From Fervidobacterium sp. (lineage in GTDB: Bacteria > Thermotogota > Thermotogae > Thermotogales > Fervidobacteriaceae), in contig JANZZV010000012.1 of NCBI GenBank assembly GCA_026419195.1, positions 1-55,732 of the forward strand: DNA of 55,732 nucleotides. Reading direction: 5' to 3'. Below are positions 23,633 to 40,717 of this stretch, piece by piece. The stretch's first letter is position 1, and each line of letters begins with the position of its first letter. A program made the translations under genes and the position numbers. The notes beneath the pieces were generated by a model. It saw only the letters and a program-made list of their open reading frames with translations. It was not told the DNA's origin and did no database searches.

Positions 23633-24538
23633 ATGAGTGTTCATATTTATAACCTAGACGATAAGTATATTTTGTTTAATCATGAACAGTTAAAATACTT
23701 TTTGCTTCCACCAAAGCTTGGAGAGCAGTTGTTAAAGCTTGACGAGAATGAGAAAGAGAGATTGATAAGCAGTTTAAAAGAAAATTTTTACTTCAATGGG
23801 AGTAATGAAATTACTCAGGAAGAAAAAGAAGATGATGTTTGTTCTAGGTTAATATTAGTGATATCGCAAGCATGTAATCTTAGTTGTTCTTATTGTTACG
23901 CTCACGGAGGTTCATACGGCAAACAGAGTGGAAACTTTTTTATGGATTTTGAAACAGCAAAAAATTCAGTTGTTTTCTTTACAAAAACTTTTGCCAAGGG
24001 TATAAAGTCAATTCAGTTTTTTGGTGGAGAGCCACTACTTAATTTAGATTTAATTGAAAGATTGTGTTATTGGGTCAACGAATACTATTCATCTATTGGA
24101 TTAAATACACCAAAATTTTCTATTTCGACAAATGGAACATTAATAAATGAAAAAGCAATAGAACTTTTTAACAGTTATAATATAGGGGTAACAGTAAGTC
24201 TTGATGGAGATAAAGGTATCAATGATGAGCATAGAAAATACAAAAATGTTAAAAGAAGTGTTCATGAAGACGTTGTAAAAATAATTAACCTTATGAACAA
24301 GATAAGAAATTTTAAATTAGGCATAGAAATGACAGTTACAAATAAGCATATAGAAAACTTTAAAGATAATCCAGATTTTGCATTGGGGTTGGTAAAACAT
24401 TTTCACAATTTAAAAATTGATTTTATACATTTTGCTCCGATAATTGGTGAATGGAATTCTAATTTAACGATTGTAGATGAAAAATCATTAGCAAATTTTT
24501 TTGATGATATTGATAAGACTGTTTTTAGCTTCTTCTGA
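23633..24538 (+). pseudogene. N-terminal ~300 aa of a radical-SAM/SPASM peptide maturase (radical SAM core only)
   Basis: CNLSCSYC (CxxxCxxC) with a ~70-aa N-terminal extension (possible RiPP-recognition element). AGGGAGGA SD. The ORF runs out in sequence antisense to the MCP gene; the SPASM continuation is at 18628-19074. Confidence 0.65.
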
Positions 24539-26245
24539 TTGTCTTGCTGCTTGTTCTATGACTTCTACGCTTTCGTTTGTAGCTATACTTGCTTTTTCAG
24601 AACCTTGTTGTATCTCCCTAAGTATTTCTCCTATCTTGTTAGTTGAATTCTTACTTTCTTCGGCTAACTTTCTTATCTCATCGGCAACAACTGCAAAACC
24701 ACGACCTGCTTCACCAGCTCTTGCGGCTTCAATGGCTGCGTTGAGTGCAAGTAGGTTCGTTTGTTCAGCTATAGAATTTATGGTATCAACTATTTCTTGA
24801 ATGTTTCTTGCTTTGTTACTTAATTCACTAACTACCTGGGCAGTTATTATCGATTTTTCTTTCGTTTTCAATATTGTTTGCGAAATAGCGTTTATCTTGT
24901 CTTCCCCATCCTTAGCAGCCATGTTTACCTGCGTTGATTTTTTGGAGAGCTCTTGTGCCGATTTAGCGACATGTTGGGCACTTGCGGTAATTTCCTCTAT
25001 ACCGCTGTTAACTTCTTCGACAGAAGCAGATGAGTTTTGCAGCGATGAGTTTATCTCTTCTATTTCTCTTGATAAATCAGCGATGGTTTTGTCTAAACTT
25101 TGGGAGATCTTTTGCAAGTCTTTTGATGAAGAATTTACTAAGTTTGAGTCTTGAAGAATTTCGGAAAGTATTATTTTTAAGTTAACTTTCATATTCTCCA
25201 GAGAATTTGCCATTTTCGCTATCTCATCTTTACCTTTAACTGAAAATTCAACATTCAGATTTCCTGTGCCAAATAATTCTATCTTTTCTGCAAGAACTTT
25301 CACAGGTTTTACTATCAAGCTGCTGACAAAGAGGATAAGGATAGCGATGGAAACTATTACAATACCGAAGATTGTTACTATCAACACTATAGAAGTTCGA
25401 ACGCGGGCTAAGTAGATATCTTCTGGTACAGAAATCAGCACTGACCAGTCACTTTCACCTTTTAAAGGCGAGTAAAAAACGTAAGCGTTTTTTCCATCTG
25501 GTGTTTTAACTATGCTTTTTCCTTGTTTTTTTTGCTTAATATCCTGCCATATCTTTTCAAAACCTTTGCCTCTTACATTGCTGATGTTTAAGTTCATTAC
25601 ATAATCTTTATTCTTATGGTATATAACCTTTCCAACACGATCGATTACAATGATTTCCCCAATTTCCAATTTCAGCTGATCGACTAATTTGTTCAGATAT
25701 TCAAGGTCAAGACCTAGACCGAACAATCCTACGATTTTGTTTTCCATATTCTTGACAGCACACGTCACAACGAAAATGTTTTTTCCCGTACTTTTAGATA
25801 CGAGTCCTTCGCTTACGAATACTTCCTTACCTTCTATCATAATTGCTTTGAAATAATCTCTGTCGGAAACATTCGATACAGCACCTGTAGTGTTTGGGGC
25901 TTTACCATCTGGATAAGCTAACAAATACATAAGAAGTTCTTCTCTTTTCTCAGCCCGTGGCTTCAATTCTAAATTGACAATTTCTTGATATTCCCCGGAT
26001 TCCAAAGCCTGAATAATCGATTTTTCTTCGGCAAAAGCTTTTGCTTCCTTTATTTCACTGGTAATCCATTTTTCAAGTATTGCAGCTGAAGAAGTTGCTA
26101 CTTGAGAGAGTGTCTGTTCTTGCCATGAATTTGTCGATATTTGGAGTCTAATGTAAACCAGTATGGCAAAGACAATAAGTAATATAACAATTGGCAAAAG
26201 GATGGTAACTAAAAGCTTTTGCCTAAGACTTTTGAAACCTTCCAT
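24488..26245 (-). CDS. Methyl-accepting chemotaxis protein lacking its last ~90 aa
   Basis: Likely start ATG 26245 (AAGGGGG SD, 8 nt); the tracker start is 26287. Has TM1, a Cache-like sensor, TM2, HAMP and the signalling domain ([34 protein letters not shown]). It ends ~45 aa after this motif where ~140 aa are expected. Confidence 0.8.
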
Positions 26246-26373
26246 TTTAACTACCCCCTTTACACAGGATTTAAATAAAAATAACAAGACTTTTTTGAAA
26301 TAATTATATCATAAATCAAATGGAAACAAAATTTTTATAAAATGTCTTTCTAAGAAGATTTATAAAATGCACA

Positions 26374-26402
26374 TTGACAAATTTCTTGTTTTTTGATAAT
26401 AT
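26374..26402 (+). promoter_or_regulatory. Near-consensus sigma70 promoter of the aromatic supraoperon leader
   Basis: TTGACA(26374-26379)-17 nt-TAATAT(26397-26402) with an extended -10 TGa. Confidence 0.6.
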
Positions 26403-26445
26403 AACTAAAAATAGGCTATTGTAAGGAACTGTTGGAGGGTTAGCT

Positions 26446-26580
26446 TTGGAAAATGGTACTTTACTTTGTGTTGTGACGTTTATTGGAAATATTTGTGAGA
26501 ACAACTCAATATCTGTTAATTACTGGTGGTTTTATTACTATGCAGGAGTGCACCTACGGCCTCCTGCGGTTTTGTCGTAG
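26446..26580 (+). CDS. Aromatic supraoperon leader peptide (44 aa, MENGTLLCVVTFIGNICENNSISVNYWWFYYYAGVHLRPPAVLS)
   Basis: TTG start 6 nt after GGAGGG (26434-26439). Codons 26-32 are TAC TGG TGG TTT TAT TAC TAT (26521-26541), i.e. seven consecutive Tyr/Trp/Phe codons. TAG at 26578. Confidence 0.65.
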   Translation: MENGTLLCVVTFIGNICENNSISVNYWWFYYYAGVHLRPPAVLS

Positions 26581-26609
26581 ACAAAACCACCAGGAGAAAG
26601 GTAAAAAAA

Positions 26610-26650
26610 CCGTGGGTGCACGATACTAAGAGTGCACCCACGGTTTTTTT
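26610..26650 (+). terminator. Intrinsic terminator of the aro leader (attenuator)
   Basis: CCGTGGGTGCAC-gatactaaga-GTGCACCCACGG + TTTTTTT, 35 nt before the aroF start. Confidence 0.75.
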
Positions 26651-26684
26651 ATAAACTTGACATAATTTTGTGGAGGTGTGGTGT

Positions 26685-27554
26685 ATGACGGGGTTAAAGT
26701 ATGCGCTTAAAATTGACAGTAACCACAAAACCATAGTTGATGTTTCAAACGTACGATTTGGAGAAGACTTTGTTATCATAGCCGGTCCGTGTGCTGTTGA
26801 AAGTGAGGAGCAGACAATTAAGACCGCTATTGCCGTCAAAGACGCAGGTGCCAATATGTTGAGAGGGGGTATTTTTAAGCCGCGCACATCACCTTATTCT
26901 TTTCAAGGACTGGGACTGAAAGGATTGAAAATACTGAAAAAGGCTTCAGAAATTACAGGATTACCCATCGTAACGGAAGTACTTGATCCGAGAGATGTAT
27001 ATTGGGTGGCAGAATACGCCGATATGATTCAGATAGGTGCAAGAAACATGCAGAATTTTTCTCTTCTAAAAGAGGTTGGAAAAGCAGGTAAACCAGTACT
27101 TCTGAAAAGGGGGATGCATTCAACGCTTAGTGATCTGTTGAATAGTGCAGAGTATATACTCTCTGAGGGAAACGATAAAGTTGTTTTGTGTGAGAGAGGA
27201 ATAAGAACTTTTGAAAACTACACAAGAAACACACTTGACATCAGTGCTGTTCCCGCTTTAAGAGAACTAACACATCTTCCTGTGATTGTTGATCCCTCTC
27301 ATGCCGCTGGGAAGTCTTCTTTAGTTACTCCCCTTGCACAAGCTGCAGCTGCAGTTGGAGCCGATGGATTGATTGTTGAAGTGCATATTTGTCCTGAAAA
27401 GGCTCTATCTGATAAAGAGCAGGCACTTACCCCCAAAGAATTCAAAAGCCTTGTACAAAGAGTTTTGAGTATCAAAAGCACGTTAGAGGTCTTTGAGGAT
27501 GATCTTGTTCAAAGCGAACTTTCATCGATAACAAGGATTGATGTTGATGGATGA
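26685..27554 (+). CDS. aroF: 3-deoxy-7-phosphoheptulonate (DAHP) synthase, type I-beta (KDO8PS-like), no N-terminal regulatory domain
   Basis: Motif [17 protein letters not shown] 26685 preceded by GGAGGTG; the tracker's GTG 26670 start is unlikely. Confidence 0.85.
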
Positions 27555-28608
27555 GGTTTTGAGATTATTCGATTCTTCTATTATCTTTTTTGAGAATAAG
27601 GTTTCTATCACCAGTTTTATAAAAAACGTATCAAGTAAGCTTTGCGTAATTGCGGATAAGACCGTCATGGAATTTTACGGTGATTTCATAAACTCTTTAG
27701 AAGCTGATTGCTTGATAGCTTTGAAAGGTGAAGATAGTAAGAATTTGGAAAGGATCTTACCTATTTACGAAAATTTGATTGCGCATTGTGTAGACAAAAC
27801 ATGGTTTGTATTAGGTGTTGGTGGCGGAATGGTGTGTGATGTTACGGGTTTTGTTGCTTCAACTTATATGAGGGGATTACACTTTGGATTTGTGCCAACC
27901 ACTCTTTTAAGTATGGTAGATGCCGCAATTGGTGGTAAGAATGGTTTAAACTTAAAGGTTTACAAAAACATAATCGGTACCATAAATTTGCCTGATTTCG
28001 TTTGTGTGTGTCCAGAGTTTTTAACTACATTACCACCTGATGAATTTCGAAATGGTATGGCCGAGGTTATAAAAGCTGGAGCTATTAAGGATAGGTTCTT
28101 ATTTGAAATACTCGAAAGTGAAGAAAATATACATAATAAATTGCCGGAGATCGTTAAGTTATCGATACAGATGAAAATAGAAGTTGTTAGGAACGATCTC
28201 AAGGATAGTAACATAAGAAAAGTTTTGAATTTTGGACATACAGTAGGTCACGCTATTGAATTAACACTCAATTTAAAACATGGATTTGCAGTGAGTATCG
28301 GTATGGTTTTGGAAACTATTGTTGGCATTTTATTGTTTGGTGTTGAAGAATGTGTTGCTTTACGTATAGTAGGTTTGTTGAGAAAGTTTGGCTTGCCCAC
28401 TTGTGTGGATCTGGATGGTTTCGAGGAAGAAATCTTCAAAGTAATTTTACACGATAAGAAAAGCCAAGATGAGAATATAGAACTGGTTTGTGTGAGGGAG
28501 ATTGGAAGTTCCGAATTGATAAGCGTTGAAAAATCAAAGCTTTTGGAGGGCTTAAGATGGGCATTCAAAAGGCAAGTGGATTTAAAGAAGTTATCTGCGC
28601 AAGTGTAG
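27541..28608 (+). CDS. aroB: 3-dehydroquinate synthase
   Basis: Motif [15 protein letters not shown]...GGKNG, the DHQS NAD-binding and active-site signatures. Confidence 0.85.
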
Positions 28609-29282
28609 GTTATTGCCGTTATGACATATTGTATGAAATTGACCAGCGATTTCCATTTTACGAAATAAGAGTTGACTTAATCGATTTCGAAACAACGGAT
28701 GTTGAATTAATAATAACTAAATTGAAAGATTTTCTGAAATTCAAGAAAAACAAATGCGTGGTTACATGTCGAGAGGGGAGTTTGAGTTCCGAGGAATGTT
28801 TCAAGATCTTGAAATCAGCAATTGAAAATGGTGCTGATTTCATAGATGTAGATTTGGGCTTCCAGTTTGACTTAAACTCTGAGCTGAGAAAACTTGCAAG
28901 ACGTTCTTCTGTAAAGTACATTAGTTCTTTTCACAATTACAAAGGTACAGATGAATTGGAGTTTTTGAAAAAGAAAGTAAACGAAGCTTTTGAAATTTTT
29001 GATCCTGATTTTGTGAAGATAGCTACTTTCGTAACGAGTAAAGAGGAGATGTTTACTCTTCTTCAACTGTGCGAACCTAAGATTATCATCGTAGGAATGG
29101 GAGAGATTGGTAGACTTGTCCGCCTTTTCTCCATTATTTTTGGTAGTCCTTTTACCTATTCAGCTGCATTGCAGCCTACGGCTCCGTATCAACCATCTTA
29201 CGATGAATTGTTAAAACTTTTAGAGGATATTGAGAATTATTCACTTGGAGCATTAAAAAATCACAGTGTACAAGTTAGTTGA
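28557..29282 (+). CDS. aroD: 3-dehydroquinate dehydratase, type I
   Basis: 241-aa TIM-barrel protein; operon position between aroB and aroE. GGAGGG SD 6 nt before the ATG; overlaps the aroB 3' end by 52 nt. Confidence 0.6.
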   Translation: MGIQKASGFKEVICASVGYCRYDILYEIDQRFPFYEIRVDLIDFETTDVELIITKLKDFLKFKKNKCVVTCREGSLSSEECFKILKSAIENGADFIDVDLGFQFDLNSELRKLARRSSVKYISSFHNYKGTDELEFLKKKVNEAFEIFDPDFVKIATFVTSKEEMFTLLQLCEPKIIIVGMGEIGRLVRLFSIIFGSPFTYSAALQPTAPYQPSYDELLKLLEDIENYSLGALKNHSVQVS

Positions 29283-29324
29283 TGTTTGAAACATATATTT
29301 TGAATTACCTGGGGGTGGGGTTTT

Positions 29325-30692
29325 TTGAAAAAATGTTTTGTTGTAGGTAAGCCCGTTTATCACAGTAAAAGTCCGCAGATTTTTGGTGAATTATTTGAAA
29401 AATGTGGTATCGAAGGTACTTACTCAAGGTTAAATCTCAACGAGTTTGACGAGATTTTTCACATTGCTTCTCAAGTTGGTATTGATTTTGCGAATATTAC
29501 AGCACCGTTTAAGAATCGAGCGTTTCAGCTATGTACTGAAAAAGGATGCAACATTTTACACGAGGCTCTTTTGAGCGAAGCTGTCAATAGCATATTTTTT
29601 GAAAATGGTCAAATGTCCATTTGCACAAACACTGACGTAAGTGCTTTGTTATCTATTTTTGGTTCTGTTTTTGAAGGTTTTGCAAAAGGTGAACTCAGCA
29701 TTGCCATACTTGGTGCGGGTGGAGCTGCTCGTGCAGCTTTGAGTGCTTTGAAAATCTTATCCGAGCGTAAAAACCTCAATTTAGTGGTCAGCATATTCAA
29801 CCGAACATATCAGAAAGCACAATCTTTGTGCGAGAAGTTCACTACTTCACAATTTCAGCCGCAAGCAGAAAGTCTGGAGATGTTTGTTTATAAATATAAA
29901 TCATTTGATACTGTTGTGAATTGTTTGACAGAGTATCCCAATGCGTTCAAAAACTTAGAATTTGAAGAAAGACAGGTATTTATAGATGCAAATTATAAGT
30001 CACCTGTGAACGTAAAAATAGCTAAGTATTTACCGGGTGAAGTTTGGTTAGTCAAGCAAGCGTTAGATTCGTTCCTCTTTCTCACAAAGAAAGATATAAA
30101 GGAGTGTATACTAAATTCTTTATACTATTCACTTTTAGAAAAGATAACAGACAATCGAAACTCTACCCCAAAAAGGAAAATCATATACCTTGTTGGCATG
30201 CCTGGTAGTGGAAAATCTACAATTGGTAGATTATTAGCTCGTGAGCTTGGATTCACATTCATTGATACGGATGAACTAATACAGGAACGTGCTAAAATGA
30301 GTATTTCTGATATATTTTCAACTTATTCGGAAGATTATTTTAGGACAGTAGAAACCTCTATTTTGAAAGATGTATCAAAGCTTGAAAATTGCGTAATAGC
30401 AACTGGAGGTGGAATTGTTTTGAAAAATGAGAATGTCAATCTAATTAAACAAGGGCACGTTGTCTGGTTGTTAAGTAGTATAGATGAATGTGCAAGAAGA
30501 TTGGATGATAAGAACGATAGACCTTTACTAAGATCTGACTCTAGAGAGGATTTACTGCAAAAGTTTTTCTCATTGTTTTCGACTCGGGTTGATCTTTATT
30601 TTAGGGTAGCAGATTTAATATTCCCAGTGGATAGATCGGAAATCTACCAAGTAGTTGATGAATTAAAGAAGGAGTTGAGTTTTTATGTTTGA
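29325..30692 (+). CDS. aroE: Fused shikimate 5-dehydrogenase / shikimate kinase
   Basis: N-terminal AroE (VVGKPVYHSKSPQIF, NAD-binding GAGGAARA). C-terminal shikimate kinase P-loop (GMPGSGKSTIGRLLARELGFTFIDTDE). TTG start after GGGGGTGGGG. Confidence 0.8.
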   Translation: MKKCFVVGKPVYHSKSPQIFGELFEKCGIEGTYSRLNLNEFDEIFHIASQVGIDFANITAPFKNRAFQLCTEKGCNILHEALLSEAVNSIFFENGQMSICTNTDVSALLSIFGSVFEGFAKGELSIAILGAGGAARAALSALKILSERKNLNLVVSIFNRTYQKAQSLCEKFTTSQFQPQAESLEMFVYKYKSFDTVVNCLTEYPNAFKNLEFEERQVFIDANYKSPVNVKIAKYLPGEVWLVKQALDSFLFLTKKDIKECILNSLYYSLLEKITDNRNSTPKRKIIYLVGMPGSGKSTIGRLLARELGFTFIDTDELIQERAKMSISDIFSTYSEDYFRTVETSILKDVSKLENCVIATGGGIVLKNENVNLIKQGHVVWLLSSIDECARRLDDKNDRPLLRSDSREDLLQKFFSLFSTRVDLYFRVADLIFPVDRSEIYQVVDELKKELSFYV

Positions 30693-32019
30693 GTACAATA
30701 TTCAAAATGACATTGTCAAAATCCACATTAATTCAAACACTGGTCTGACAAAAAAACCAGTTATTCTTGTTGCTCCTCCATCCAAGAGTGTTTCGATCAG
30801 AGCGGTGTTTGGTGGGTTACTGAGTTCAGAAGGGATAATCTTAAGAAAGCTTTCAACTTGCAGTGATGTTTTATCAACTTTGAATGTTGTTAACACACTT
30901 GGCAATAATGTGGATCTACTTTCTAAGGAAGACGAAAGTATAGATATACAAATAACAAAAGTTAGCAGAAAACAGGACGTTAACATAGTAAATTGTGGAG
31001 AATCTGGTTTGTGTGCTCGAATGATCGTCCCCGTCTTAGGTCTAATTGGACAACCTCAAAAAGCCAAGACAGTCACAGGAGAAGGTTCGTTGTTAAATAG
31101 ACCTTTTGATATGCTTGGGCAACTGAGACAGTTTGGATTAGCTGTGAATACAACTAACGGGAAATTACCTGTCATTGTACAAGGAGAACTAAAGTCAAAC
31201 AAGGGATACATTGACACAAGTATAACAAGCCAGGTACTTTCTGGTTTGCTTATGACTTTACCTTTAGTATCGGGTAATTCGGAGATAAGTGTCGAGAATC
31301 CATTAAGCAAGCCATATATTTTGTTAACACTTGATGTTATGAGCAGATTCGGTGTGCATGTCTTGCATGATGAAGCCTTGAAACATTTTGAAATTCCGGG
31401 AGAACAATCTTATGTGTTATCCGAATTTCAAATAGAAGGCGATTGGTCGGCAGGGGCGTTTTTGCTTGTATTGGCCATCTTGCTAAAAAAGGAAGGAATT
31501 AACGTATCTGTTTCAAATTTATCTATAAACTCTGTGCAGGCAGATAAAGCCATTTTAGATGTTCTTAAGGATGTAGGGGTGCTAGTGAATTACTCACACC
31601 TTGGTTTTACAGTTGATAGTATTGATGAGCTTAAGCCATTTGAATTTAATGCAGAAGATTGCCCGGACCTAGTACCACCATTGGTATGTTTAGCAACGTT
31701 TTGCGAAGGAGAAAGCAAAATCTACGGTGTAGGACGTTTACAATACAAAGAAAGTAACAGACTAGAGGCACTTGGAAAGCTTTTGAATGATTTTGGTATC
31801 AAATGCTGTATAGAAAATAATGTATTTATTGTAGTTGGTTCAACTACACGCTTTACAACAGATAGTGTGTTAGTGGATTCTTACAAAGACCACAGAATTG
31901 CGATGGCAGGTAGCATTCTAGCGTTTGGAAAGAAGATACGTACAATCATAAAAGATGGATCATGTGTATCAAAATCCTTTCCGGGTTTTTACAAGCAGTT
32001 GATGAACATCGTGAGGTGA
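30685..32019 (+). CDS. aroA: 3-phosphoshikimate 1-carboxyvinyltransferase (EPSP synthase)
   Basis: 444 aa; KESNRLEA and DHRIAMA motifs. Confidence 0.85.
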   Translation: MFEYNIQNDIVKIHINSNTGLTKKPVILVAPPSKSVSIRAVFGGLLSSEGIILRKLSTCSDVLSTLNVVNTLGNNVDLLSKEDESIDIQITKVSRKQDVNIVNCGESGLCARMIVPVLGLIGQPQKAKTVTGEGSLLNRPFDMLGQLRQFGLAVNTTNGKLPVIVQGELKSNKGYIDTSITSQVLSGLLMTLPLVSGNSEISVENPLSKPYILLTLDVMSRFGVHVLHDEALKHFEIPGEQSYVLSEFQIEGDWSAGAFLLVLAILLKKEGINVSVSNLSINSVQADKAILDVLKDVGVLVNYSHLGFTVDSIDELKPFEFNAEDCPDLVPPLVCLATFCEGESKIYGVGRLQYKESNRLEALGKLLNDFGIKCCIENNVFIVVGSTTRFTTDSVLVDSYKDHRIAMAGSILAFGKKIRTIIKDGSCVSKSFPGFYKQLMNIVR

Positions 32020-32023
32020 TTAC

Positions 32024-33049
32024 GTGACCACGATCGGTAGAATATTTCGAGTTAGTATGTTTGGTGAATCACACGGCGCATCTGTAGGTGTGTTAGTTGA
32101 TGGTGTACCAGCAGGGATGCCATTGTCAGTTCATGATTTCAGAAAAGACCTGCTTAGAAGAAAAGGAGGAAAGTTTGGTACAACAAAGCGAATTGAGGAT
32201 GATATACCAATAATAGAATCCGGGGTATTTGAGGGGCATACAACAGGTACACCTATACTGATAAGATTCCCAAACAAAGACACAATATCAAAGGACTATG
32301 AAGAAATACGTTACATACCAAGACCAGGTCATGCGGATTTCACAGCGTACGTTAAATACAAGGGGTTTAACGACTATAGAGGTGGTGGTCATTTCTCAGG
32401 TAGACTTACCACAGGTATCGTCGCCGCAGGTGTAATAGCAAAGAAATTGATCTTTCCAATGAAAGTTCATGCTTACGTAGAGCAAATAGGTGGTAGACGG
32501 AATGATTTTTATAATTTACTCAAAAAAGCTTACGAGTTAGGTGATTCCTTAGGTGGAATCGTAGTTTGCAAAGTCTGTAATGTACCTATAGGATTGGGTG
32601 AACCATTCTTTGATTCTATTGAAAGCACCATTTCACATGCTGTATTTTCCATTCCTGGTGTCAAAGGCATTGAATTTGGCGTAGGTTTTCAATCTGCATG
32701 TATGAAAGGATCTGAATACAACGATCAATTCGTTGATACTTCGGGTAGAACACTCACAAACAACTCCGGAGGTATAAACGGAGGAATAACGAATGGAAAT
32801 GAACTCGTTTTTAGGATTGCGGTAAGACCTACTGCTAGCATATCAATACCGCAACAAAGTTTCGATATTAGGACAAAAGAAAAGAAAGAAATAAAGATTA
32901 GCGGAAGACACGATGTTTGTTTTGCACTTAGAGTTCCGCCGATAGTAGAGGCAGTCACGGCAATTACATTAGCGGATCTGAAACTCATTAGTCAGTCTTA
33001 CAATTCGTCATTTGTTGAAACAGTCAGAAAATGGGAGGTAGGTTTATAA
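32024..33049 (+). CDS. aroC: Chorismate synthase
   Basis: GTG start after GTGAGGTGA; motifs FGESHG and GRHD. Confidence 0.85.
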   Translation: MTTIGRIFRVSMFGESHGASVGVLVDGVPAGMPLSVHDFRKDLLRRKGGKFGTTKRIEDDIPIIESGVFEGHTTGTPILIRFPNKDTISKDYEEIRYIPRPGHADFTAYVKYKGFNDYRGGGHFSGRLTTGIVAAGVIAKKLIFPMKVHAYVEQIGGRRNDFYNLLKKAYELGDSLGGIVVCKVCNVPIGLGEPFFDSIESTISHAVFSIPGVKGIEFGVGFQSACMKGSEYNDQFVDTSGRTLTNNSGGINGGITNGNELVFRIAVRPTASISIPQQSFDIRTKEKKEIKISGRHDVCFALRVPPIVEAVTAITLADLKLISQSYNSSFVETVRKWEVGL

Positions 33050-34150
33050 ATGGAAAAAAGGATACAAATCGAAAAACTCAGAGAAGTCATAGACTCTATT
33101 GATAGTAAACTAATCCATCTTTTGAATCAGCGATTAGAATTAGCAATCAAAATCGGTAGATTAAAAGACAATATCTACGACGAAAAACGAGAACAAGAAG
33201 TTTTGAATCACGTAAAAAATTTATGTAGCAATTTGTTAGTTGGCGAGGAATTTTGTGTCCAATTGTATGAAAAAATTATGGAAAAAAGTAAGCAATTACA
33301 AGAAAGTAATGTGAAATTAATAGGTTTTCAAGGCGAACATGGTGCTTACAGCGAAATCTCTGGCGTGAAATTTGGTGAGAAGATATTCTCAGATCGCGCA
33401 AAATTCGCAACGATCCCTCTAAAAAGTTTTGAAGAGGTTATACAAAATGTAGAACATGACATTATAGATTATGGCGTACTACCTATTCAAAATTCTCTTG
33501 AAGGTCCAATAAATACCGCCACATATGCTTTACTGGAAAGTAACTTAAACGTTGTAGCTGAGGTTATTTTGCCGATAAACCATTGCCTGTTGATTTTGCC
33601 AGACGTTGACCCAAAAGAAATAAAATTTGTATACTCACATCCGCAGGCACTTGCTCAATGCCGTAATTTTTTAAAACGTTTATCACTTCAGCCTTTGGAA
33701 TTTTTTGATACGGCTGGGGCTGCAAAAAAGCTTGCAGATGAAAGAAATTCAAATGCAGCCGTCATTGCAAGTAAACTTGCAGCAAAGATATACGGTCTTG
33801 AAGTTTTGAAAGATAACATCCAAGATTATCCTTACAACAAAACTTCTTTCTGGATACTCTCTAAGGTCATGAATAACCATGGTTCAAAGTGTGCAATCAC
33901 ATTCTTACTTGAGGATAAACCAGGTGCGTTACTAAGCGTGTTGGAACTCTTCAAGCTTAGAAATATCAATTTAACCAGGATAGTATCTTTACCTTCAAGA
34001 AACGAAGTAAACGAGTATAGATTCTTTGTAGACTTTGAAACTCAAAATGTTGACGATCTTGAAAAATTCTTAAAGACCTTAGCAGAAAAAACGAAACAAT
34101 TAAGAGTCTTTGGGTTGTACGATTCTTTTGAAATAAACGATAAATTATAG
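33050..34150 (+). CDS. pheA: Bifunctional chorismate mutase / prephenate dehydratase (P-protein) with C-terminal ACT domain
   Basis: N-terminal AroQ chorismate-mutase helix (SIDSKLIHLLNQRLELAIKIGRLK), a PDT domain and a C-terminal ACT domain. GGGAGGTAGG SD. Confidence 0.8.
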   Translation: MEKRIQIEKLREVIDSIDSKLIHLLNQRLELAIKIGRLKDNIYDEKREQEVLNHVKNLCSNLLVGEEFCVQLYEKIMEKSKQLQESNVKLIGFQGEHGAYSEISGVKFGEKIFSDRAKFATIPLKSFEEVIQNVEHDIIDYGVLPIQNSLEGPINTATYALLESNLNVVAEVILPINHCLLILPDVDPKEIKFVYSHPQALAQCRNFLKRLSLQPLEFFDTAGAAKKLADERNSNAAVIASKLAAKIYGLEVLKDNIQDYPYNKTSFWILSKVMNNHGSKCAITFLLEDKPGALLSVLELFKLRNINLTRIVSLPSRNEVNEYRFFVDFETQNVDDLEKFLKTLAEKTKQLRVFGLYDSFEINDKL

Positions 34151-34957
34151 GTGGTGAGGAAGTTGGATGAAAAAATTTTATTTGTGCTTGGTCTTGGGAA
34201 GATGGGAAGTTGGTTTAAAGAAAGTCTTGAAAAATTCGTATTACAAAACCCTACTTACAAGGGTTGGAAGGTCTTAGGTTACGATAAAAACATGAATATT
34301 CCATTGGAAAATGTGCTAACTGCCGCACCTTCAATAGTTTTGAATTGTGTATCACTTGACAATGTTGTAGACGCCTTTAAAAGTGTTGAAAGTTTTATTG
34401 ATCAGCAGACTGTTCTATGCGATATCGCTTCCGTCAAAACTAATTTGGCGCAGTTTTACACGAACTCTCAACACAAGTTTTGTTCATTCCATCCCATGTT
34501 TGGTCCAACATTTGCGAAAATGGACAGAATAAAAGGTGAGAATGTAATATTCATAAAAGGTTCTGATGAAGAAACCACGACATTTTTCGAAGAATTTTTC
34601 TTTCCGTATTCTATGAAATTTTTTTACATGACGTTTGAAGAACATGACGAGATGATGGCATATTCACTTAGTGTCCCATTTATCGCTTCATTTGTATTTG
34701 GTAGTCGTGTTGATAACACGGTTGTCCCAGGGACTACATTTAAAAAGCATATAGATATTCTACTTGGATTGTTAAGTGAGGATGACAAACTAATATCTGA
34801 GATACTTTTCAACAAACATTCAGTGAAAGAAATTGAAAAAATATCCTCAAATCTTGAATATCTAAAACATATAGTTATGGACAAAGATCAGGAAGAACTG
34901 AGTAAATTCTTGAAAAAACTTAGAGTTCGTTTTAGCGATGTCTTGTATCGTTTCTGA
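34151..34957 (+). CDS. tyrA: Prephenate dehydrogenase
   Basis: NAD-binding motif VLGLGKMGSWF. The exact start is ambiguous (GTG 34151, GTG 34154 or TTG 34163 within AGGTGGTGAGGAAG). Confidence 0.7.
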   Translation: MVRKLDEKILFVLGLGKMGSWFKESLEKFVLQNPTYKGWKVLGYDKNMNIPLENVLTAAPSIVLNCVSLDNVVDAFKSVESFIDQQTVLCDIASVKTNLAQFYTNSQHKFCSFHPMFGPTFAKMDRIKGENVIFIKGSDEETTTFFEEFFFPYSMKFFYMTFEEHDEMMAYSLSVPFIASFVFGSRVDNTVVPGTTFKKHIDILLGLLSEDDKLISEILFNKHSVKEIEKISSNLEYLKHIVMDKDQEELSKFLKKLRVRFSDVLYRF

Positions 34958-34979
34958 TTTTCCGAAGGGGGAATCTTTG

Positions 34980-36440
34980 ATGAATGAACTTGGAAATCTC
35001 TTTTCTGATTTAAAATTGAACTTACATGCAGTAAAAAGATTAGCTGATTTTGAGACTCCTTTGTCTTTGTACGTAAAACTTAGCTATGCATATTCTGATA
35101 GTCCTATGTTTTTGTTGGAAAGCGTAGAACAACACGAAATGCTTGGACGGTTCTCTTTTATTGGAGTTAACCCATTTCTCACGATTAAGGTCTCAGATAA
35201 CAACATCGAAATTGAGGGAATTCATCATGTTCATCTGAGGTTGCAGAACTTGGCTGAAACTTTTGAAACAGTAAAACATATAGTTGAGAAAATTAGAAAT
35301 TCTATAGAGGTTGAGAACCATGAATCCACGAAAATAGACACTTCAATTATCCCTATGGCTTTAGTTATCTTAAATTATGAAAGCGTTAAGTATTTTGAAG
35401 AAATTACATTCGATAAGGCAAAAGTATTCGACACTCCGGATATCTTGATAATCTTTCCAAGTATTGTAATTGTCTTTGATAATTACAAAAGACTAATGTG
35501 GAACGTTATGACTTACCAGCCTTCCCAAGCACAAAGCGAAGTTGAAAGAGAACTGCTTTCGATAGAAAAATATCCGGTAGTTCTTAAACACCCTTTTGAC
35601 AAACAAGACATAACTAGCAAAATCCAGTCTCATACGTCGAAAAAGGCGTTCTGTGAGAAGATCCAAACAGCAAAGGATTACATATACCAAGGAGACATTT
35701 TTCAGGTCGTCTTATCTCAAAGATTTTCTATCAATACGACACAGAATGATTTACATTTATACAGAAAGTTAAGGTTAACCAATCCTTCACCGTACATGTT
35801 TTTAGTGCAAACAAAAGATTTCTCACTTTTCGGAAGTTCTCCCGAAACGCTTGTGAAATTTATTAATAAAAAAGTAATTATACATCCAATAGCAGGTACC
35901 AGAAAACGCGGTATGAATGCTCAAGAGGATGAAGAAATCGAAAAAGAATTACTAACGAACGAAAAAGAATTAGCAGAACACTCCATGCTTGTTGATTTGG
36001 CAAGGAACGATATTGGACGTGTTGCGATACCTGGTACTGTGAAAGTTCCGAGACTTATGTATATTGAAAAATACTCACATGTAATGCATATAGTTTCAGA
36101 AGTAGTTGGGGTGGCAGAGGAGAGATTTAACGCATTCGATGTAATACGTAGTGTATTTCCTGCTGGGACGGTCACAGGTGCACCAAAGCTCAGAGCGATG
36201 GAGATAATAGAACAATTAGAAGACACTTCTCGTGAATTTTACGCGGGTAGCGTTGGCTACATCTCTTGGTCTGGAGATGCTGATTTTGCAATAACTATCC
36301 GAAGTGCTGTGTTAAAAGACGAAGTATTGTATACGCAATCAGGTGCTGGTATTGTATACGATTCGATTCCTGAAAACGAATACGAAGAGACTATGAACAA
36401 AGCTAAAGCGATATTTTCTATCTTAGCTATGAAAACTTAG
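34980..36440 (+). CDS. trpE: Anthranilate synthase component I
   Basis: Chorismate-binding domain (LLESVEQHEMLGRFSF, GAGIVYDS). ATG 34980 follows AAGGGGGAA at 6 nt; the tracker start 34938 overlaps tyrA and lacks an SD. Confidence 0.85.
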   Translation: MNELGNLFSDLKLNLHAVKRLADFETPLSLYVKLSYAYSDSPMFLLESVEQHEMLGRFSFIGVNPFLTIKVSDNNIEIEGIHHVHLRLQNLAETFETVKHIVEKIRNSIEVENHESTKIDTSIIPMALVILNYESVKYFEEITFDKAKVFDTPDILIIFPSIVIVFDNYKRLMWNVMTYQPSQAQSEVERELLSIEKYPVVLKHPFDKQDITSKIQSHTSKKAFCEKIQTAKDYIYQGDIFQVVLSQRFSINTTQNDLHLYRKLRLTNPSPYMFLVQTKDFSLFGSSPETLVKFINKKVIIHPIAGTRKRGMNAQEDEEIEKELLTNEKELAEHSMLVDLARNDIGRVAIPGTVKVPRLMYIEKYSHVMHIVSEVVGVAEERFNAFDVIRSVFPAGTVTGAPKLRAMEIIEQLEDTSREFYAGSVGYISWSGDADFAITIRSAVLKDEVLYTQSGAGIVYDSIPENEYEETMNKAKAIFSILAMKT

Positions 36441-36469
36441 CAACTTCAACTAACGTGAGGTGATCATAT

Positions 36470-37087
36470 ATGTTTCTTGTCATAGACAACTACGACTCAT
36501 TTACATATAACCTTGTGCAGTATGTTATGGAAATAGTTGGTGCAGAGAATGTTTTAGTGTTCAGAAACAGAGAGATTGATACTGAAAAGATATACAAAAT
36601 AGAAAAAGAAAAACCGATAGAAGGGATAATTATATCACCCGGTCCTGGGCATCCAAAAGATATACCAAACGTTTTGAAAATTATAAAAAAATTTGGAGAA
36701 AACATACCTATCCTTGGTGTTTGTTTAGGACATCAAGCCATTGGATATGCCTTTGGATGTTCTGTGGTAAATGCGAGAGAGGTTGTACATGGAAAACTTA
36801 GACAGTGTCTACACGATGGGAAAGGCATATTCCAGGGTATACCACAACCGATAAGAGTTATGCGCTACCATTCACTTGTTGTAAGAAAAGAAGACCTAGC
36901 TAACTCACCGCTTATAGTAACGGCTTCAACAATTGACGGTGAGGTTATGGGCATAAGACACAAAAAATACCCAGTAGAAGGCGTTCAATTTCATCCAGAA
37001 TCTATTTTCACAGAACACGGTTTTGATATAGTTAAAAATTTCATACATCAAGCAACACTGTTTATAAAACAACTGAATAAATTTTAA
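36470..37087 (+). CDS. trpG: Anthranilate synthase component II (glutamine amidotransferase)
   Basis: Class-I GATase triad context (GVCLGHQ, HPE). Confidence 0.8.
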   Translation: MFLVIDNYDSFTYNLVQYVMEIVGAENVLVFRNREIDTEKIYKIEKEKPIEGIIISPGPGHPKDIPNVLKIIKKFGENIPILGVCLGHQAIGYAFGCSVVNAREVVHGKLRQCLHDGKGIFQGIPQPIRVMRYHSLVVRKEDLANSPLIVTASTIDGEVMGIRHKKYPVEGVQFHPESIFTEHGFDIVKNFIHQATLFIKQLNKF

Positions 37088-37098
37088 GGGGGGAAATT

Positions 37099-38151
37099 AT
37101 GAGCGAATACTACTTAATTGACGAATCGATAAAAAAGATATCCTCCGGTTTGCACTTAACCTTGTCAGAAAGTACGGAATTGTTCAAAAACATGCTAAAC
37201 TTAAATGACAATGAGTCAGACTTAGAACTAAAATATAAAATCACCGGCTTCTTAACTGCTTTAACCATGAAAGGAATACATGAAGAAGAACTTCTTGGAT
37301 TGCTTAACGTAATGTTAGAAAAAAGTGTTCCTGTTTCTCGTCCAACTTACCCTATCATTGACATTGTAGGGACAGGAGGGGACGGTAAACAGACTATTAA
37401 CATATCAACAACTGTCTCATTTATACTTGCTGCCGCTGGTGTCAAAGTTGCTAAGCACGGTAACAAAGCTGCTTCAAGCAAATGCGGAAGTGCTGATGTA
37501 CTTCAATCACTTGGTATAAACATAAACCTCTCACCAGAACGCTCTGTCAAAATGCTTGAGGAAACAAACTTCTGCTTCCTTTTTGCTCCGAATTACCATC
37601 CTTATTTGAAAAATATAATGTCAATTCGTAAGGCATTACCTGTAAAAACCATATTTAATTTTGTTGGACCAATCGCAAACCCATTTTCACCTGAATACAT
37701 CTTCTTAGGTTGCTCTGAGAAAAAACTTTTAAAATTGTACGTAAAAGTACTTCAAAACCGAAACGTCAGAAGGGCAATAATCTTTTCAGGTGATGATGGT
37801 ATGGATGAAATAACACTGTCCACAACGACTACCGCTTACTTAATCGCCAAGGGAAAAATAAAGAAATTAAAAATAAATCCCGTAGACCATGGCTTTAAAT
37901 TGGCATCAGAAGAAAGCGTAAAAGGAGCAGATCCAAATTACAATGCACAGATTATAGAAAAACTTTTTAAAGGGCAAGTAGACGGACCTATAAAAGAAAT
38001 TGTCTTACTAAACTCAGCGTATGCATTGTATACATACGAAAAAGTAAAAACTCCGGATGAAGGTTTGCAAGTAGCAAAGCACATCATTGAATCTGGACAA
38101 GCTTACGATAAACTACAGCAGATAAAAGAATTTTCACAAAAATCTGAATAG
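37099..38151 (+). CDS. trpD: Anthranilate phosphoribosyltransferase
   Basis: Motifs DIVGTGGDG and KHGNKA. Confidence 0.85.
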   Translation: MSEYYLIDESIKKISSGLHLTLSESTELFKNMLNLNDNESDLELKYKITGFLTALTMKGIHEEELLGLLNVMLEKSVPVSRPTYPIIDIVGTGGDGKQTINISTTVSFILAAAGVKVAKHGNKAASSKCGSADVLQSLGININLSPERSVKMLEETNFCFLFAPNYHPYLKNIMSIRKALPVKTIFNFVGPIANPFSPEYIFLGCSEKKLLKLYVKVLQNRNVRRAIIFSGDDGMDEITLSTTTTAYLIAKGKIKKLKINPVDHGFKLASEESVKGADPNYNAQIIEKLFKGQVDGPIKEIVLLNSAYALYTYEKVKTPDEGLQVAKHIIESGQAYDKLQQIKEFSQKSE

Positions 38152-38153
38152 AG

Positions 38154-38903
38154 GTGAAAAATATGTTATCCTTCAAACAAATTAGACAAGAAAAAATAAA
38201 CAAGTACAAAAAAGATAATCCTCACAAATTTTACAACATTTTCAAAGATAGGGGCAAAGGAAGAATAATTGCAGAGTTCAAAAGACAATCTCCTTCAAAA
38301 GGAAAACTTTTGCAACAAGAAAACCTGCAAGACATCCTGAACGATTACGAACAAGCAGGGGTGGCTGCTATCTCTATCCTGACAGATGAACAATATTTTC
38401 AGGGTTCTATAACTGATTTAGAAACTGCCAGAAAGATAACAAAACTTCCGATACTTAGAAAAGACTTCATATGCTTAACAAAACAAATTTGCGAAAGTGC
38501 TATCTACGGAGCAGATTGTGTACTTTTAATAAGCGAGTTGCTAAGTATTAAAGAACTTCAAAAGCTTTCCACAATTGCAACCGATCTTGAATTAGACTTG
38601 TTGATTGAGATTCACTACCTTGAATCGTACGAAAAAGTAAAAAAACTTAAAGTTCCGTACATTCTCGGTGTAAACTCCAGGAACTTAAAAACATTGCAAG
38701 TATCTCATAAGCACGCATTAGAAGTTGTAAAAAACCTACCAAGTGATATTCCACTTGTAATAGAAAGTGGAATCGAAGATGAAAAGGATATTGAAATCTA
38801 CAAACCATACAAACCAAGTGGATTTCTAATAGGTACAAGTCTGTTAAAAGCTATAAACAGGGTAGAAAAATTATCGAGAATAATAAAAACTGCTAAAAAC
38901 TAA
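38154..38903 (+). CDS. trpC: Indole-3-glycerol phosphate synthase
   Basis: 249-aa TIM barrel; operon position; motif RKDFI. Confidence 0.8.
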   Translation: MKNMLSFKQIRQEKINKYKKDNPHKFYNIFKDRGKGRIIAEFKRQSPSKGKLLQQENLQDILNDYEQAGVAAISILTDEQYFQGSITDLETARKITKLPILRKDFICLTKQICESAIYGADCVLLISELLSIKELQKLSTIATDLELDLLIEIHYLESYEKVKKLKVPYILGVNSRNLKTLQVSHKHALEVVKNLPSDIPLVIESGIEDEKDIEIYKPYKPSGFLIGTSLLKAINRVEKLSRIIKTAKN

Positions 38904-38914
38904 CGCGAGGTAAG

Positions 38915-40712: not shown

Positions 40713-40717
40713 GACAT

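Follow-up and report, generated by a model that had tools for sequence, protein, structure and literature searches.

How transcription of a complete aromatic amino acid pathway might be controlled from a single leader is the question raised by a contig of a metagenome-assembled genome (MAG) of Fervidobacterium (Thermotogota), of which the whole stretch analysed here (55.7 kb) is called the window. It carries an operon in the order aroF-aroB-aroD-aroE-aroK fusion-aroA-aroC-pheA-tyrA-trpE-trpG-trpD-trpC-trpF-trpB-trpA (NCBIfam matches), in which pheA is a chorismate mutase-prephenate dehydratase. The 17 enzyme activities are packed into 15 ORFs with intergenic gaps of at most 42 nt and several overlapping genes, and the gene order in F. 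thailandense is the same. A preliminary description, made from the sequence alone, had given 16 genes over 15 kb; the gene count is here reduced to 15, and the extent is 14.8 kb. The start of aroF is most likely the ATG at 26685, 7 nt past GGAGGTG, with GTG 26670 disfavoured. An exact search for its product had no match, and homology searching placed the source in a Fervidobacterium MAG. The alignment of this protein of 289 residues to a 338-position profile covers only positions 72-333; it appears to lack the N-terminal part carried by longer DAHP synthases, so that control at the level of the gene may weigh more than usual. The upstream neighbour is a divergent chemoreceptor gene (24488-26287, minus strand). 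Three other candidate features were set aside: a terminator-like site at 41877-41905 as the end of the operon, since it sits within a convergent ORF; TTGACA 26657-62, just 3' of the leader terminator, as an internal promoter, since it has no acceptable -10 and is absent from relatives; and a minus-strand ORF (26516-26887, 123 aa), judged spurious because it is antisense to the conserved leader and the aroF start.

The features of the leader and the operon are collected in Table 1. Re-reading of the sequence bore out the near-consensus promoter, the Shine-Dalgarno (SD) sequence, the TTG-initiated ORF of 44 codons and the seven consecutive aromatic codons covering Tyr, Trp and Phe of the preliminary description. 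The promoter matches at 10 of 12 positions, with the -10 hexamer TAATAT at 26397-402 and the TG at 26394-95, and promoters of the form TTGACA-17-TAnAAT occur at the equivalent position in leader loci L001, L060, L061 and L064. As in known attenuators, a short ORF with its own ribosome-binding site lies between the promoter and the first gene, and it contains a cluster of codons for amino acids made by the operon that follows. None of the six frames of the window holds a longer aromatic run than these seven residues, and a run of seven was reached anywhere in only 2 of 200 whole-window shuffles.

Table 1. Positions in the window of the leader features, named by their predicted roles, and of the operon.
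Feature	Position	Strand	Sequence or description
Sigma-70-type promoter	26374-26402	+	TTGACA 26374-79, 17-nt spacer, extended -10 TGaTAATAT 26394-402
Leader Shine-Dalgarno	26434-26439	+	GGAGGG, 6 nt 5' of TTG start (26446)
Leader ORF	26446-26580	+	44 sense codons + TAG; M(TTG)ENGTLLCVVTFIGNICENNSISVNYWWFYYYAGVHLRPPAVLS
Regulatory aromatic run	26521-26541	+	Codons 26-32: UAC UGG UGG UUU UAU UAC UAU (Tyr Trp Trp Phe Tyr Tyr Tyr)
Segment A, 5' strand of outer anti-antiterminator stem	26523-26533	+	CUGGUGGUUUU, inside aromatic codons, pairs with G
Segment B, inner hairpin 5' strand	26542-26548	+	GCAGGAG, pairs with D
Segment C, antiterminator 5' strand	26548-26559	+	GUGCACCUACGG, copy of terminator 3' arm, pairs with I
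Segment D	26561-26567	+	CUCCUGC; pairs with B (termination state) or, 26561-66, with H (read-through state)
E:F hairpin, apical antiterminator part	26568-26588	+	GGUUUUGUC-GUA-GACAAAACC; 26568-76 pairs with 26580-88
Segment G, outer stem 3' strand	26583-26593	+	AAAACCACCAG, pairs with A
Segment H, second copy of B	26591-26596	+	CAGGAG; pairs with D, middle part of antiterminator
Segment I, terminator 5' arm	26603-26621	+	A-run 26603-09 and GC core CCGUGGGUGCAC 26610-21
Segment J, terminator 3' arm	26632-26650	+	GUGCACCCACGG 26632-43 and U7 26644-50
Regulated operon	26685-41500	+	15 ORFs with NCBIfam matches

The RNA can adopt three mutually exclusive folds. The first, the anti-antiterminator, overlaps the regulatory codons: its inner hairpin B:D begins at the nucleotide right after the run, and its outer stem A:G is formed by the run itself. 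Both pairings had been noted before and hold, the 7-bp inner hairpin as well as the 11-bp stem, in which CUGGUGGUUUU is the exact complement of AAAACCACCAG. The second, the antiterminator, uses the 5' arm of the terminator and thereby excludes the terminator. Its pairing of C (12 nt) with the GC core of I, including one G.U, is as proposed earlier, but the whole is larger than claimed, a three-part helix in which C:I is joined by D:H and by the E:F hairpin. Because F overlaps G, E:F and A:G are mutually exclusive. The stop codon of the leader ORF (UAG 26578-80) lies at the tip of E:F, and in L060, L061 and L064 the counterpart of this hairpin likewise carries the stop codon at its apex or beside it. 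The third fold is an intrinsic terminator located 5' of the first structural gene, in which I and J form a 12-bp GC core with A/U extensions and 7 U. The duplicated terminator arm was likewise found as described, GAGUGCACCUACGG (26546-59) being a 13/14 copy of GAGUGCACCCACGG (26630-43). With at most two mismatches this 14-mer has three copies in the window, all within the leader, against 0.09 expected, and three copies were reached in none of 100 shuffles.

Orthologous leaders were recovered from other Fervidobacterium MAGs, F. thailandense, Marinitoga aeolica and relatives, and the L064/L065 lineage, giving 11 distinct leaders in three broad groups (Fervidobacterium, Marinitoga-like and L064/L065). 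In F. thailandense, which is in culture, the leader occupies positions 2736-2927 of L060. SD, start, open frame, an in-frame aromatic run beside the first hairpin, and terminator are retained in them. The preliminary description had held that orthologues without the aromatic-codon ORF or without the duplicated arm would count against it; every recovered leader keeps ORF and run, and in all of them the terminator 5' arm has a complementary segment upstream. In seven of seven leaders examined, a GGAGG-type motif precedes the start codon by 5-9 nt, and frame 0 is free of stops in seven of seven orthologous leaders, with one to four stops in each of the other two frames. The 5' part of the leader is only 44-65% identical across lineages, yet frame, start and length (38-44 codons) are retained.

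The runs of the orthologues occupy the matching position, immediately before the inner hairpin, and read YWWFYY, FWWFYY, YCYYY, CYYY or CYFYYY. In Fervidobacterium, where the operons contain the trp genes, the run has Trp-Trp; the Marinitoga operon comprises only aroF-aroA-tyrA-aminotransferase, and its aromatic codons are for Tyr only (Tyr-Cys-Tyr-Tyr-Tyr or Cys-Tyr-Tyr-Tyr). Judged from these sequences, the codon content of the run tracks the gene content of the operon between genera.

Searches for further members returned little. The leader peptide had no match among 5.8 billion proteins in a single-sequence search, and a profile from a nine-row alignment (eight distinct peptides) recovered only two leader ORFs, both already known. 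A metagenome scan with a 32-nt degenerate pattern covering the run and the inner hairpin gave only three known variants and two GC-rich chance matches. Leader ORFs of this kind are seldom predicted by gene callers.

Comparative alignment, which had been suggested as a check, shows that the upstream segment changes together with the terminator 5' arm. B:D is a consensus helix in RNAalifold, with 89.6% of cells pairing (11 sequences). Over the lineages, C:I is paired in 94.4% of cells, one position showing CG:6/UA:5; the terminator I:J, which RNAalifold also supports, is paired in 94% of cells, and four of its pairs are changed on both sides. In arm I, column 109 is G in Fervidobacterium and A elsewhere, and its partners change with it in the terminator (GC:6/AU:5) and in the antiterminator (CG:6/UA:5); column 108 behaves likewise (terminator GC:8/AU:3, antiterminator UG:5/CG:3/UA:3), the co-variation as a whole representing about three independent lineages and few independent events, with a control (a) that ignores relatedness. 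Since both the 3' partner and the upstream copy change with the terminator 5' arm, the terminator/antiterminator alternative is supported. The middle part of the antiterminator is also maintained: segment H reads CAGGGG in F. thailandense, with a G.U kept, and in L064 a shifted CGCAGG pairs with CCUGCG in place of H:D. The outer 11-bp stem fared less well as a general feature, as it is present in the Fervidobacterium group, is confined to it, and is missing in Marinitoga and L064.

The whole leader folds at -85.4 kcal/mol (z = -5.5). The anti-antiterminator has -32.2 kcal/mol at 37 C and -15.9 at 65 C, the antiterminator -41.0 and -20.7, and the terminator -34.2 and -18.6. In the modelled growing transcript, B:D forms first, followed by A:G, then, if allowed, C:I, and finally I:J; the outer stem A:G is complete in the 65 C fold once 26594 has been transcribed. 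In transcripts that end short of the 3' arm, the probability of C:I pairing is 0.98-0.99 in four lineages, against a mean of 0.35-0.55 after shuffling of the upstream part, with none of 60 shuffles matching the observed value. A modelled ribosome footprint on the aromatic codons preserves C:I pairing, and one on the next 10-11 codons abolishes it. The estimated barrier for refolding from the termination-prone fold to the antiterminator is about 15 (37 C) or 13 (65 C) kcal/mol when no ribosome is present; with codons 29-32 occupied by a ribosome it is about 6 kcal/mol, and with codons 26-28 occupied 9-13 kcal/mol; these truncated-transcript and barrier estimates approximate the kinetics of the switch. 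In equilibrium folding of the full-length leader the terminator is invariably the outcome, even under the constraint of a stalled ribosome, so the switch must be kinetic; as attenuators act kinetically, this does not refute the model.

Together these data point to a leader that is probably a classical ribosome-mediated transcription attenuator for the whole aromatic pathway of a Fervidobacterium, a reading based on sequence and modelling to which we assign a probability of roughly 0.85. The earlier interpretation as a ribosome-stalling attenuator is thus supported, the contrary findings named in advance, in orthologues and as T-box or TRAP signatures, having come out negative. We infer that the ORF is translated, that ribosomes stall on it, in what kinetic order the RNA folds and how expression responds, as follows. 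Transcription would start at about 26409, and a ribosome would begin the 44-codon leader. With charged tRNA-Trp, -Phe and -Tyr plentiful, it would pass the seven aromatic codons, melt the RNA as far as the stop codon at the E:F tip and depart. The RNA would then adopt the first local fold available, B:D, clamped in Fervidobacterium by the outer stem A:G. This fold would bury C, so that I stays free until J appears; the terminator I:J would form, and RNA polymerase would halt in the U-run at 26644-50. If any one of the charged tRNAs were scarce, the ribosome would stall on the run with its footprint over A and B. D would then pair with H atop the E:F hairpin and C would remain single-stranded, able to pair with I once I is made; the three-part antiterminator would hold I away from J, and polymerase would read through into aroF...trpA. 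As a stall at any of the Trp, Phe or Tyr codons would suffice, the leader would act as an OR gate in which shortage of any one amino acid derepresses all 15 genes. Most likely, then, the upstream ORF and the terminator/hairpin switch would turn the operon on when any of the three amino acids is short.

The modelling also suggests two refinements. With a ribosome parked at the stop codon (assumed footprint), C is exposed and still able to reach I, so termination under sufficiency would need prompt ribosome release or steric exclusion. With a stall on codons 26-28 the inner hairpin stays intact, so the Trp codons may be weaker signals than those for Phe and Tyr.

TRAP, PyrR and T-box systems, too, deliver their output as a choice between terminator and antiterminator. 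The switch could therefore be real and yet be set by a trans-acting factor, a TRAP/PyrR-type protein or a T-box-like uncharged tRNA, with the ORF incidental, and the strongly conserved region 26542-26643 (54% G+C vs 32% just upstream) could be a binding surface. We regard this as very unlikely. Rfam was searched with the entire window at the gathering threshold and with 26250-26750 at E up to 10; apart from miRNA/sRNA matches at chance level and a single tRNA elsewhere nothing was returned, and there was no match to T-box (RF00230), Trp_leader (RF00513) or Phe_leader (RF01859). No T-box core motif was found, and the nine GAG/UAG triplets in 282 nt are scattered, with no run of three or more at 2-3 nt spacing. 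Signatures of the T-box or TRAP type, which the preliminary description had named as contrary evidence, are thus absent from these searches. Moreover, SD, start, frame and run persist at 44-65% identity, which is not expected of an untranslated spacer, and the amino acids encoded by the run depend on which genes the operon contains.

Arrest peptides such as TnaC and SecM often depend on Pro and Trp close to the stalling site. A ligand-dependent, TnaC-like arrest peptide that senses free aromatic amino acids instead of tRNA charging would have its arrest motif in the conserved tail G-x-H-x-(R/W)-(S/P)-P-A. Six residues are indeed invariant in the nine-row alignment (one of the eight distinct peptides being included at two lengths), among them the tail Gly, His, Pro and Ala, and Pro-Pro or Ser-Pro occurs in the tail shortly 5' of the stop. 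All conserved tail codons, however, fall in pairing segments (B, C or D), so that RNA constraints explain their conservation. Replacements in the tail (Val to Glu, Arg to Trp, Ala to Asn) are radical for the peptide and keep the base pairs, the first two following RNA pairing and not peptide conservation. Clustered codons for the end products of the pathway itself are the hallmark of starvation sensing, and induction by a free amino acid has the wrong sign for a biosynthetic operon. An arrest peptide is accordingly a highly improbable explanation. Scarcely credible is an unregulated element, that is, a leaky constitutive terminator or insulator between the chemoreceptor gene and the operon with alternative pairings as by-products of a GC-rich palindrome: the full-length leader does invariably fold into the terminator, which looks bidirectional because of its A-run on one side and U-run on the other, but it sits downstream of a consensus promoter and ahead of aroF, the chemoreceptor gene is transcribed away from it and so needs no terminator here, changes in the 5' arm between lineages are accompanied by changes in the copy of the 3' arm, and C-I pairing is far above that of shuffled controls.

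The ribosome-mediated attenuator proposed here is a new and well-conserved example of a classic mechanism, the mechanism itself not being new; the leader functions like Rfam attenuator families yet belongs to none of them. With trpL and pheL of Escherichia coli it shares a short promoter-proximal ORF with tandem end-product codons, three mutually exclusive folds (anti-antiterminator, 1:2; antiterminator, 2:3; terminator, 3:4), regulatory codons within the 5' strand of the first fold, and a terminator that is the most stable fold, which makes the decision kinetic. It differs in having no sequence or covariance-model similarity to them, a run that mixes three amino acids, an operon of the common pathway plus all three branches, a three-part antiterminator, and a thermophilic host of the phylum Thermotogota; its stop codon lies at the antiterminator apex, 19 nt 3' of C, whereas that of trpL is just upstream of segment 2. 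In E. coli ilvGMEDA (Leu/Val/Ile) and thr (Thr/Ile), one leader peptide with interspersed codons integrates several amino acids. The Fervidobacterium leader likewise reads multiple amino acid supplies; those pathways are branched or sequential, in contrast to a common trunk and three terminal branches in one operon. The aromatic supraoperon of Bacillus subtilis has its attenuator inside, before trpE, where TRAP binds 11 (G/U)AG triplets. It resembles the present case in uniting aro and trp genes and tyrA in one large unit and in a leader terminator/antiterminator decision; in Fervidobacterium the attenuator stands at the very start of the operon, there is no triplet array, and the translated leader is the likely sensor. 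A literature search found no description of such a leader in Thermotogota. Vitreschak and colleagues are said to have mentioned candidate attenuators in Thermotogales in 2004.

The closest published functional analogue is aroR of Corynebacterium glutamicum, a leader first noted in PMC4046766, with mixed aromatic codons before a DAHP synthase gene. According to the summary in PMC11802643, its peptide (Phe-Tyr-Phe) precedes aroF and control is by ribosome stalling (Neshat et al. 2014); only Phe limitation was effective there, and Tyr supply had no effect despite the Tyr codon (PMC11802643), so a codon in the leader is no proof that the corresponding amino acid is sensed. aroR has three regulatory codons, none for Trp, and a small aroF operon, with a separate trpL for trp, whereas the Fervidobacterium leader has seven codons including Trp-Trp and a single 15-gene unit in a different phylum; the likeness is functional, and homology is not expected. 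In Acholeplasma, uORFC-13-1 is a predicted uORF with promoter, RBS and start, found only before aroF and just 5' of an intrinsic terminator, for which attenuation was proposed (Brewer et al. 2021, PMC8632094). It has a U-run encoding at least one Phe and is restricted to Acholeplasma and environmental sequences (PMC8632094); compared by description only, it differs in that no mixed Trp/Tyr/Phe run or supraoperon is reported. To call a combined-aromatic attenuator unusual, as had been done for this locus, was therefore an overstatement, mixed aromatic leaders before aroF having been published for C. glutamicum (PMC11802643, PMC4046766) and predicted for Acholeplasma (PMC8632094).

Of 59 loci from many phyla, 20 have an aromatic-run uORF in front of an aroF homologue, and mixed aromatic leaders were seen in Thermotogota, Spirochaetota, Bacillota, Chloroflexota and Desulfobacterota-like lineages. 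In an automated antiterminator test, the aroF leaders of other phyla gave values close to those of shuffled controls, with terminator arms poorly delimited, and for these loci we claim only the uORF and the terminator. It is conceivable, at slightly less than even odds, that mixed aromatic-codon leaders before DAHP synthase genes form a large, uncurated cross-phylum class of attenuators without an Rfam family, of which the Thermotogota form is the most complete.

This study provides a clean, comparatively supported regulatory model for the aromatic pathway in a group of Thermotogota, in which a single leader can integrate three end products over 15 genes. If the model is true, one OR-gate leader would govern the entire Trp/Phe/Tyr pathway at 65-70 C, tight coupling of transcription and translation would be implied in a deep-branching thermophilic phylum, and changes in which genes the operon holds would be matched over evolution by changes in the codons of the run, one hint of this being the apparent decay of UGG to UGU where trp genes are absent. 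The uORFs found across phyla point to a widespread, little-catalogued class of attenuators that is open to modelling and annotation, and in strain engineering of thermophiles deletion of 26603-26650 would be an obvious route to derepress aromatic biosynthesis.

The leader upstream of the aroF operon is very probably a classical attenuator, a reading of sequence and folding models to which we assign a probability of about 85%. Re-reading of positions 26200-26900 recovered all elements listed in the preliminary description, which had proposed attenuation of an aro-phe-tyr-trp operon (see table). A scan of 18 kb for promoter-like sites placed this promoter among the best. The aromatic run is the longest in six frames of the whole 55.7-kb window, and 2 of 200 whole-window shuffles contained a run of seven anywhere. 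The 14-mer of the terminator 3' arm, whose complement is the 5' arm, recurs with one change at 26546-59; it has only three matches in the window, all of them these leader copies (0.09 expected), and the fold of the complete leader is much more stable than those of shuffled sequences (z = -5.5). A perfect TTGACA lies directly 3' of the terminator U-run; it is probably no promoter, having no acceptable -10 element at 16-18 nt and being unconserved in relatives. The GTG-started minus-strand frame of 123 codons, which runs opposite the leader and the first part of aroF, is most likely spurious.

Features of the leader, its surroundings and the compared loci (L numbers, fetched aroF loci; energies in kcal/mol at 37 C / 65 C)
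Feature	Position	Strand	Details
Promoter (sequence read)	26374-79; 26397-402	+	TTGACA, 17-nt spacer, TAATAT, TG preceding
GGAGGG	26434-39	+	six nt 5' of TTG
Leader ORF	TTG 26446; TAG 26578-80	+	44 codons
Aromatic run	leader codons 26-32	+	UAC UGG UGG UUU UAU UAC UAU
Terminator	26603-50	+	A7-CCGUGGGUGCAC, 10-nt loop, GUGCACCCACGG-U7
Anti-antiterminator	B:D 26542-48/26561-67; A:G 26523-33/26583-93		-32.2 / -15.9
Antiterminator	C:I 26548-59/26610-21; D:H 26561-66/26591-96; E:F 26568-76/26580-88		stacked; -41.0 / -20.7
Terminator fold	I:J		-34.2 / -18.6
TTGACA	26657-62		
Antisense ORF	26516-26887	-	
Operon	26685-41500		
AroF	26685-27554		289 residues
Radical SAM/SPASM ORF	23633-24538	+	
Chemotaxis protein gene	24488-26287	-	
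Convergent ORF	41503-42186	-	227 residues
Terminator-like hairpin	41877-41905	+	
tRNA	48928-49014	+	87 nt
UGU codons, Trp-less leaders	L061 2844-2846; L064 2866-2868; L066, L073		L066, L073: codon before YYY
uORFs, Treponema/Spirochaetales	L025, L027, L029-L031, L033		
uORFs, Aerococcus	L036, L038, L046-L048		
uORFs, Chloroflexota	L026, L028		
uORFs, Oscillospiraceae/Ruminococcus	L039, L043		
Further uORFs	L002, L006, L007, L008		

The operon comprises fifteen ORFs, one fewer than the sixteen genes counted initially, with gaps of at most 42 nt and several overlaps. NCBIfam models identify them as aroF, aroB, aroD, an aroE-aroK fusion, aroA, aroC, pheA (chorismate mutase plus prephenate dehydratase) and tyrA, followed by trpE, G, D, C, F, B and A; an internal attenuator would not fit 5' of trpE. 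The leader terminator serves no other gene, because the adjoining methyl-accepting chemotaxis protein (chemoreceptor) gene is transcribed away from it. A radical SAM/SPASM peptide-maturase-like ORF, whose best match (PapB family) falls well short of the cut-off, is convergent with the chemoreceptor gene, with an overlap of about 50 nt, and a RiPP precursor might lie upstream. At the other end, a convergent ORF lacking an NCBIfam match lies 2 nt from the end of trpA, a gap that leaves no terminator between them; this ORF contains the region's best terminator-like hairpin. A tRNA is the sole Rfam match in the window at gathering threshold.

Folding of sub-regions and growing transcripts yielded three mutually exclusive conformations: anti-antiterminator, antiterminator and terminator. 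The pairing of the terminator 5' arm (I) with C, the upstream copy of the 3' arm (J), was found as originally described, but the antiterminator is larger, with D:H and E:F added. Segment H duplicates B, and segments F and G share nucleotides; formation of the outer stem A:G and the inner hairpin B:D therefore precludes each of the three antiterminator layers, and vice versa. The leader stop codon lies at the E:F tip. An RNAalifold consensus of 11 leaders independently returned B:D plus the terminator.

At equilibrium, the full-length leader retained the terminator under every ribosome constraint, as classical attenuators likewise do, and the decision between folds must therefore be kinetic. 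Truncating transcripts immediately 5' of the terminator 3' arm gave an I-C pairing probability of 0.98-0.99 for the window, for F. thailandense, for Marinitoga and for the L064 lineage; with the upstream sequence shuffled, the mean was 0.35-0.55, and the observed value was reached in 0 of 60 shuffles. A modelled ribosome footprint (assumed to span -15 to +12 around the A site) left I-C pairing intact on the aromatic codons and removed it when placed on the ten or eleven codons that follow. Without a ribosome, growing transcripts form the anti-antiterminator first, and the barrier to the antiterminator is estimated at 13-15 kcal/mol; it falls to 9-13 kcal/mol with the footprint on codons 26-28 and to about 6 kcal/mol on codons 29-32, where D:H and E:F have already formed, all barriers being heuristic (findpath, assumed footprint, nearest-neighbour parameters extrapolated to 65 C). 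A weak point of the model is that C would stay exposed while a ribosome pauses at the stop codon; termination under amino acid sufficiency would presumably need prompt ribosome release or steric exclusion.

At the protein level, the window's AroF is 100% identical to one annotated in a Fervidobacterium MAG. Upstream DNA was fetched for relatives with 80-88% AroF identity: three more Fervidobacterium-type variants (L001/L076; L062/L063; L067-L070/L078/L080), F. thailandense (L060/L081, from the complete genome), Marinitoga aeolica (L061/L075), Marinitoga-like contigs L066 and L073, and the lineage L064/L065/L074. All have a consensus promoter, a GGAGG-type Shine-Dalgarno sequence, a start codon, an open frame of 38-44 codons and an in-frame aromatic run (YWWFYY, FWWFYY, YCYYY, CYYY or CYFYYY) directly 5' of the conserved hairpin, followed by a terminator. 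Between lineages, identity is 44-65% in the 5' part of the ORF and 68-92% from run to terminator; frame 0 contains no stops, the other frames one to four. This pattern is as would be expected of a peptide whose translation, not sequence, matters. In Marinitoga (L061 ~2603-2685; L066 1-25), the leader promoter directly follows a tRNA-like gene with its terminator; the anticodon loop, read by eye, looks like GUU (Asn). The peptide tail is conserved (G-x-H-x-R/W-S/P-P-A), as an arrest peptide might be, but such a reading is unlikely because the tail lies wholly within pairing segments and its replacements, radical for the peptide, are conservative for base pairs.

Judged from the sequences compared, leader codon content follows operon gene content. 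F. thailandense, with the run FWWFYY, shares the window's gene order aroF...tyrA-trpE-trpG-trpD. The M. aeolica unit (run Tyr-Cys-Tyr-Tyr-Tyr) comprises aroF, aroA, tyrA and an aminotransferase gene before convergent genes. L066 (Cys-Tyr-Tyr-Tyr) begins with the same genes, its contig being cut within the fourth, aminotransferase; L073, with the same run, shows aroF and one further gene only, and in the L064 lineage CYFYYY precedes aroF...aroC-pheA, where the contig ends. The UGU (Cys) codons of these Trp-less leaders stand beside the position of the Fervidobacterium UGG codons or replace them, and may be earlier Trp codons altered by one base once the trp genes had left the operon.

In an 11-sequence alignment, 94% of cells pair in the terminator, with four pairs changed on both sides, and 94% in C:I, compared with 36-56% for slid-partner controls; this covariation spans about three independent lineages, and the shuffle control ignores relatedness. 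At position 109, arm I carries G in the Fervidobacterium group but A in Marinitoga and L064, and the partner of this position changes from C to U in both the terminator (GC:6/AU:5) and the antiterminator (CG:6/UA:5); both partners of position 108 change likewise. Tracking of a shared arm's changes by both its partners is a hallmark of a switch rather than of a single hairpin. A constitutive terminator leaves the co-varying copy of the arm unexplained. The outer stem A:G is kept in the Fervidobacterium group only, the inner hairpin and a D:H-type helix in all lineages, with shifted register in L064. The comparison advocated in the preliminary description, of leaders in relatives and covarying arms, thus favours attenuation. 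T-box, TRAP-like or other known RNA families were not detectable in the leader.

The design is functionally that of trpL and pheL, and the ilv and thr leaders also integrate several amino acids; the aromatic supraoperon of B. subtilis is TRAP-controlled. The window leader matches no Rfam leader family. The closest published analogues are the Phe-Tyr-Phe leader aroR upstream of aroF in C. glutamicum (PMC11802643, PMC4046766) and uORFC-13-1, a motif predicted upstream of aroF in Acholeplasma (PMC8632094). A description of the window leader was not found in the literature on Thermotogota. Candidate attenuators in Thermotogales are reportedly mentioned in a comparative study of 2004.

A wider survey took in aroF loci of many phyla, 59 in all. 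In 20 of these, an upstream frame had five or more aromatic residues per seven (shuffles 1.6, reverse strand 2), and in 14 it had six or more (0.04 and 0, respectively); examples are Treponema FYYYYYW, Aerococcus FYFFFNFYFYFF, Chloroflexia NWYYFYF, Oscillospiraceae YFYNTYYFYF and Desulfatiglans YWWWRW. A strong hairpin with U-run separates uORF and aroF in 18 of 19 loci besides L001; antiterminators in these other phyla were not established by a crude automated test. The survey suggests a widespread class of aromatic leader peptides without an Rfam family. Because such uORFs and terminators recur before aroF across phyla, the window leader looks like one well-resolved family within a common, largely uncurated solution.

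The AroF DAHP synthase aligns to the NCBIfam profile NF006421 at positions 72-333 of 338 only and thus appears to be missing some 70 N-terminal residues present in longer relatives, which form the allosteric domain in the Thermotoga maritima enzyme. AroF may therefore be free of feedback inhibition, in which case the attenuator would carry more weight. The significance of the leader lies in the completeness of the pathway that it would regulate, in its putative three-amino-acid OR gate, in a thermophilic, deep-branching host, and in a pattern that crosses phyla.
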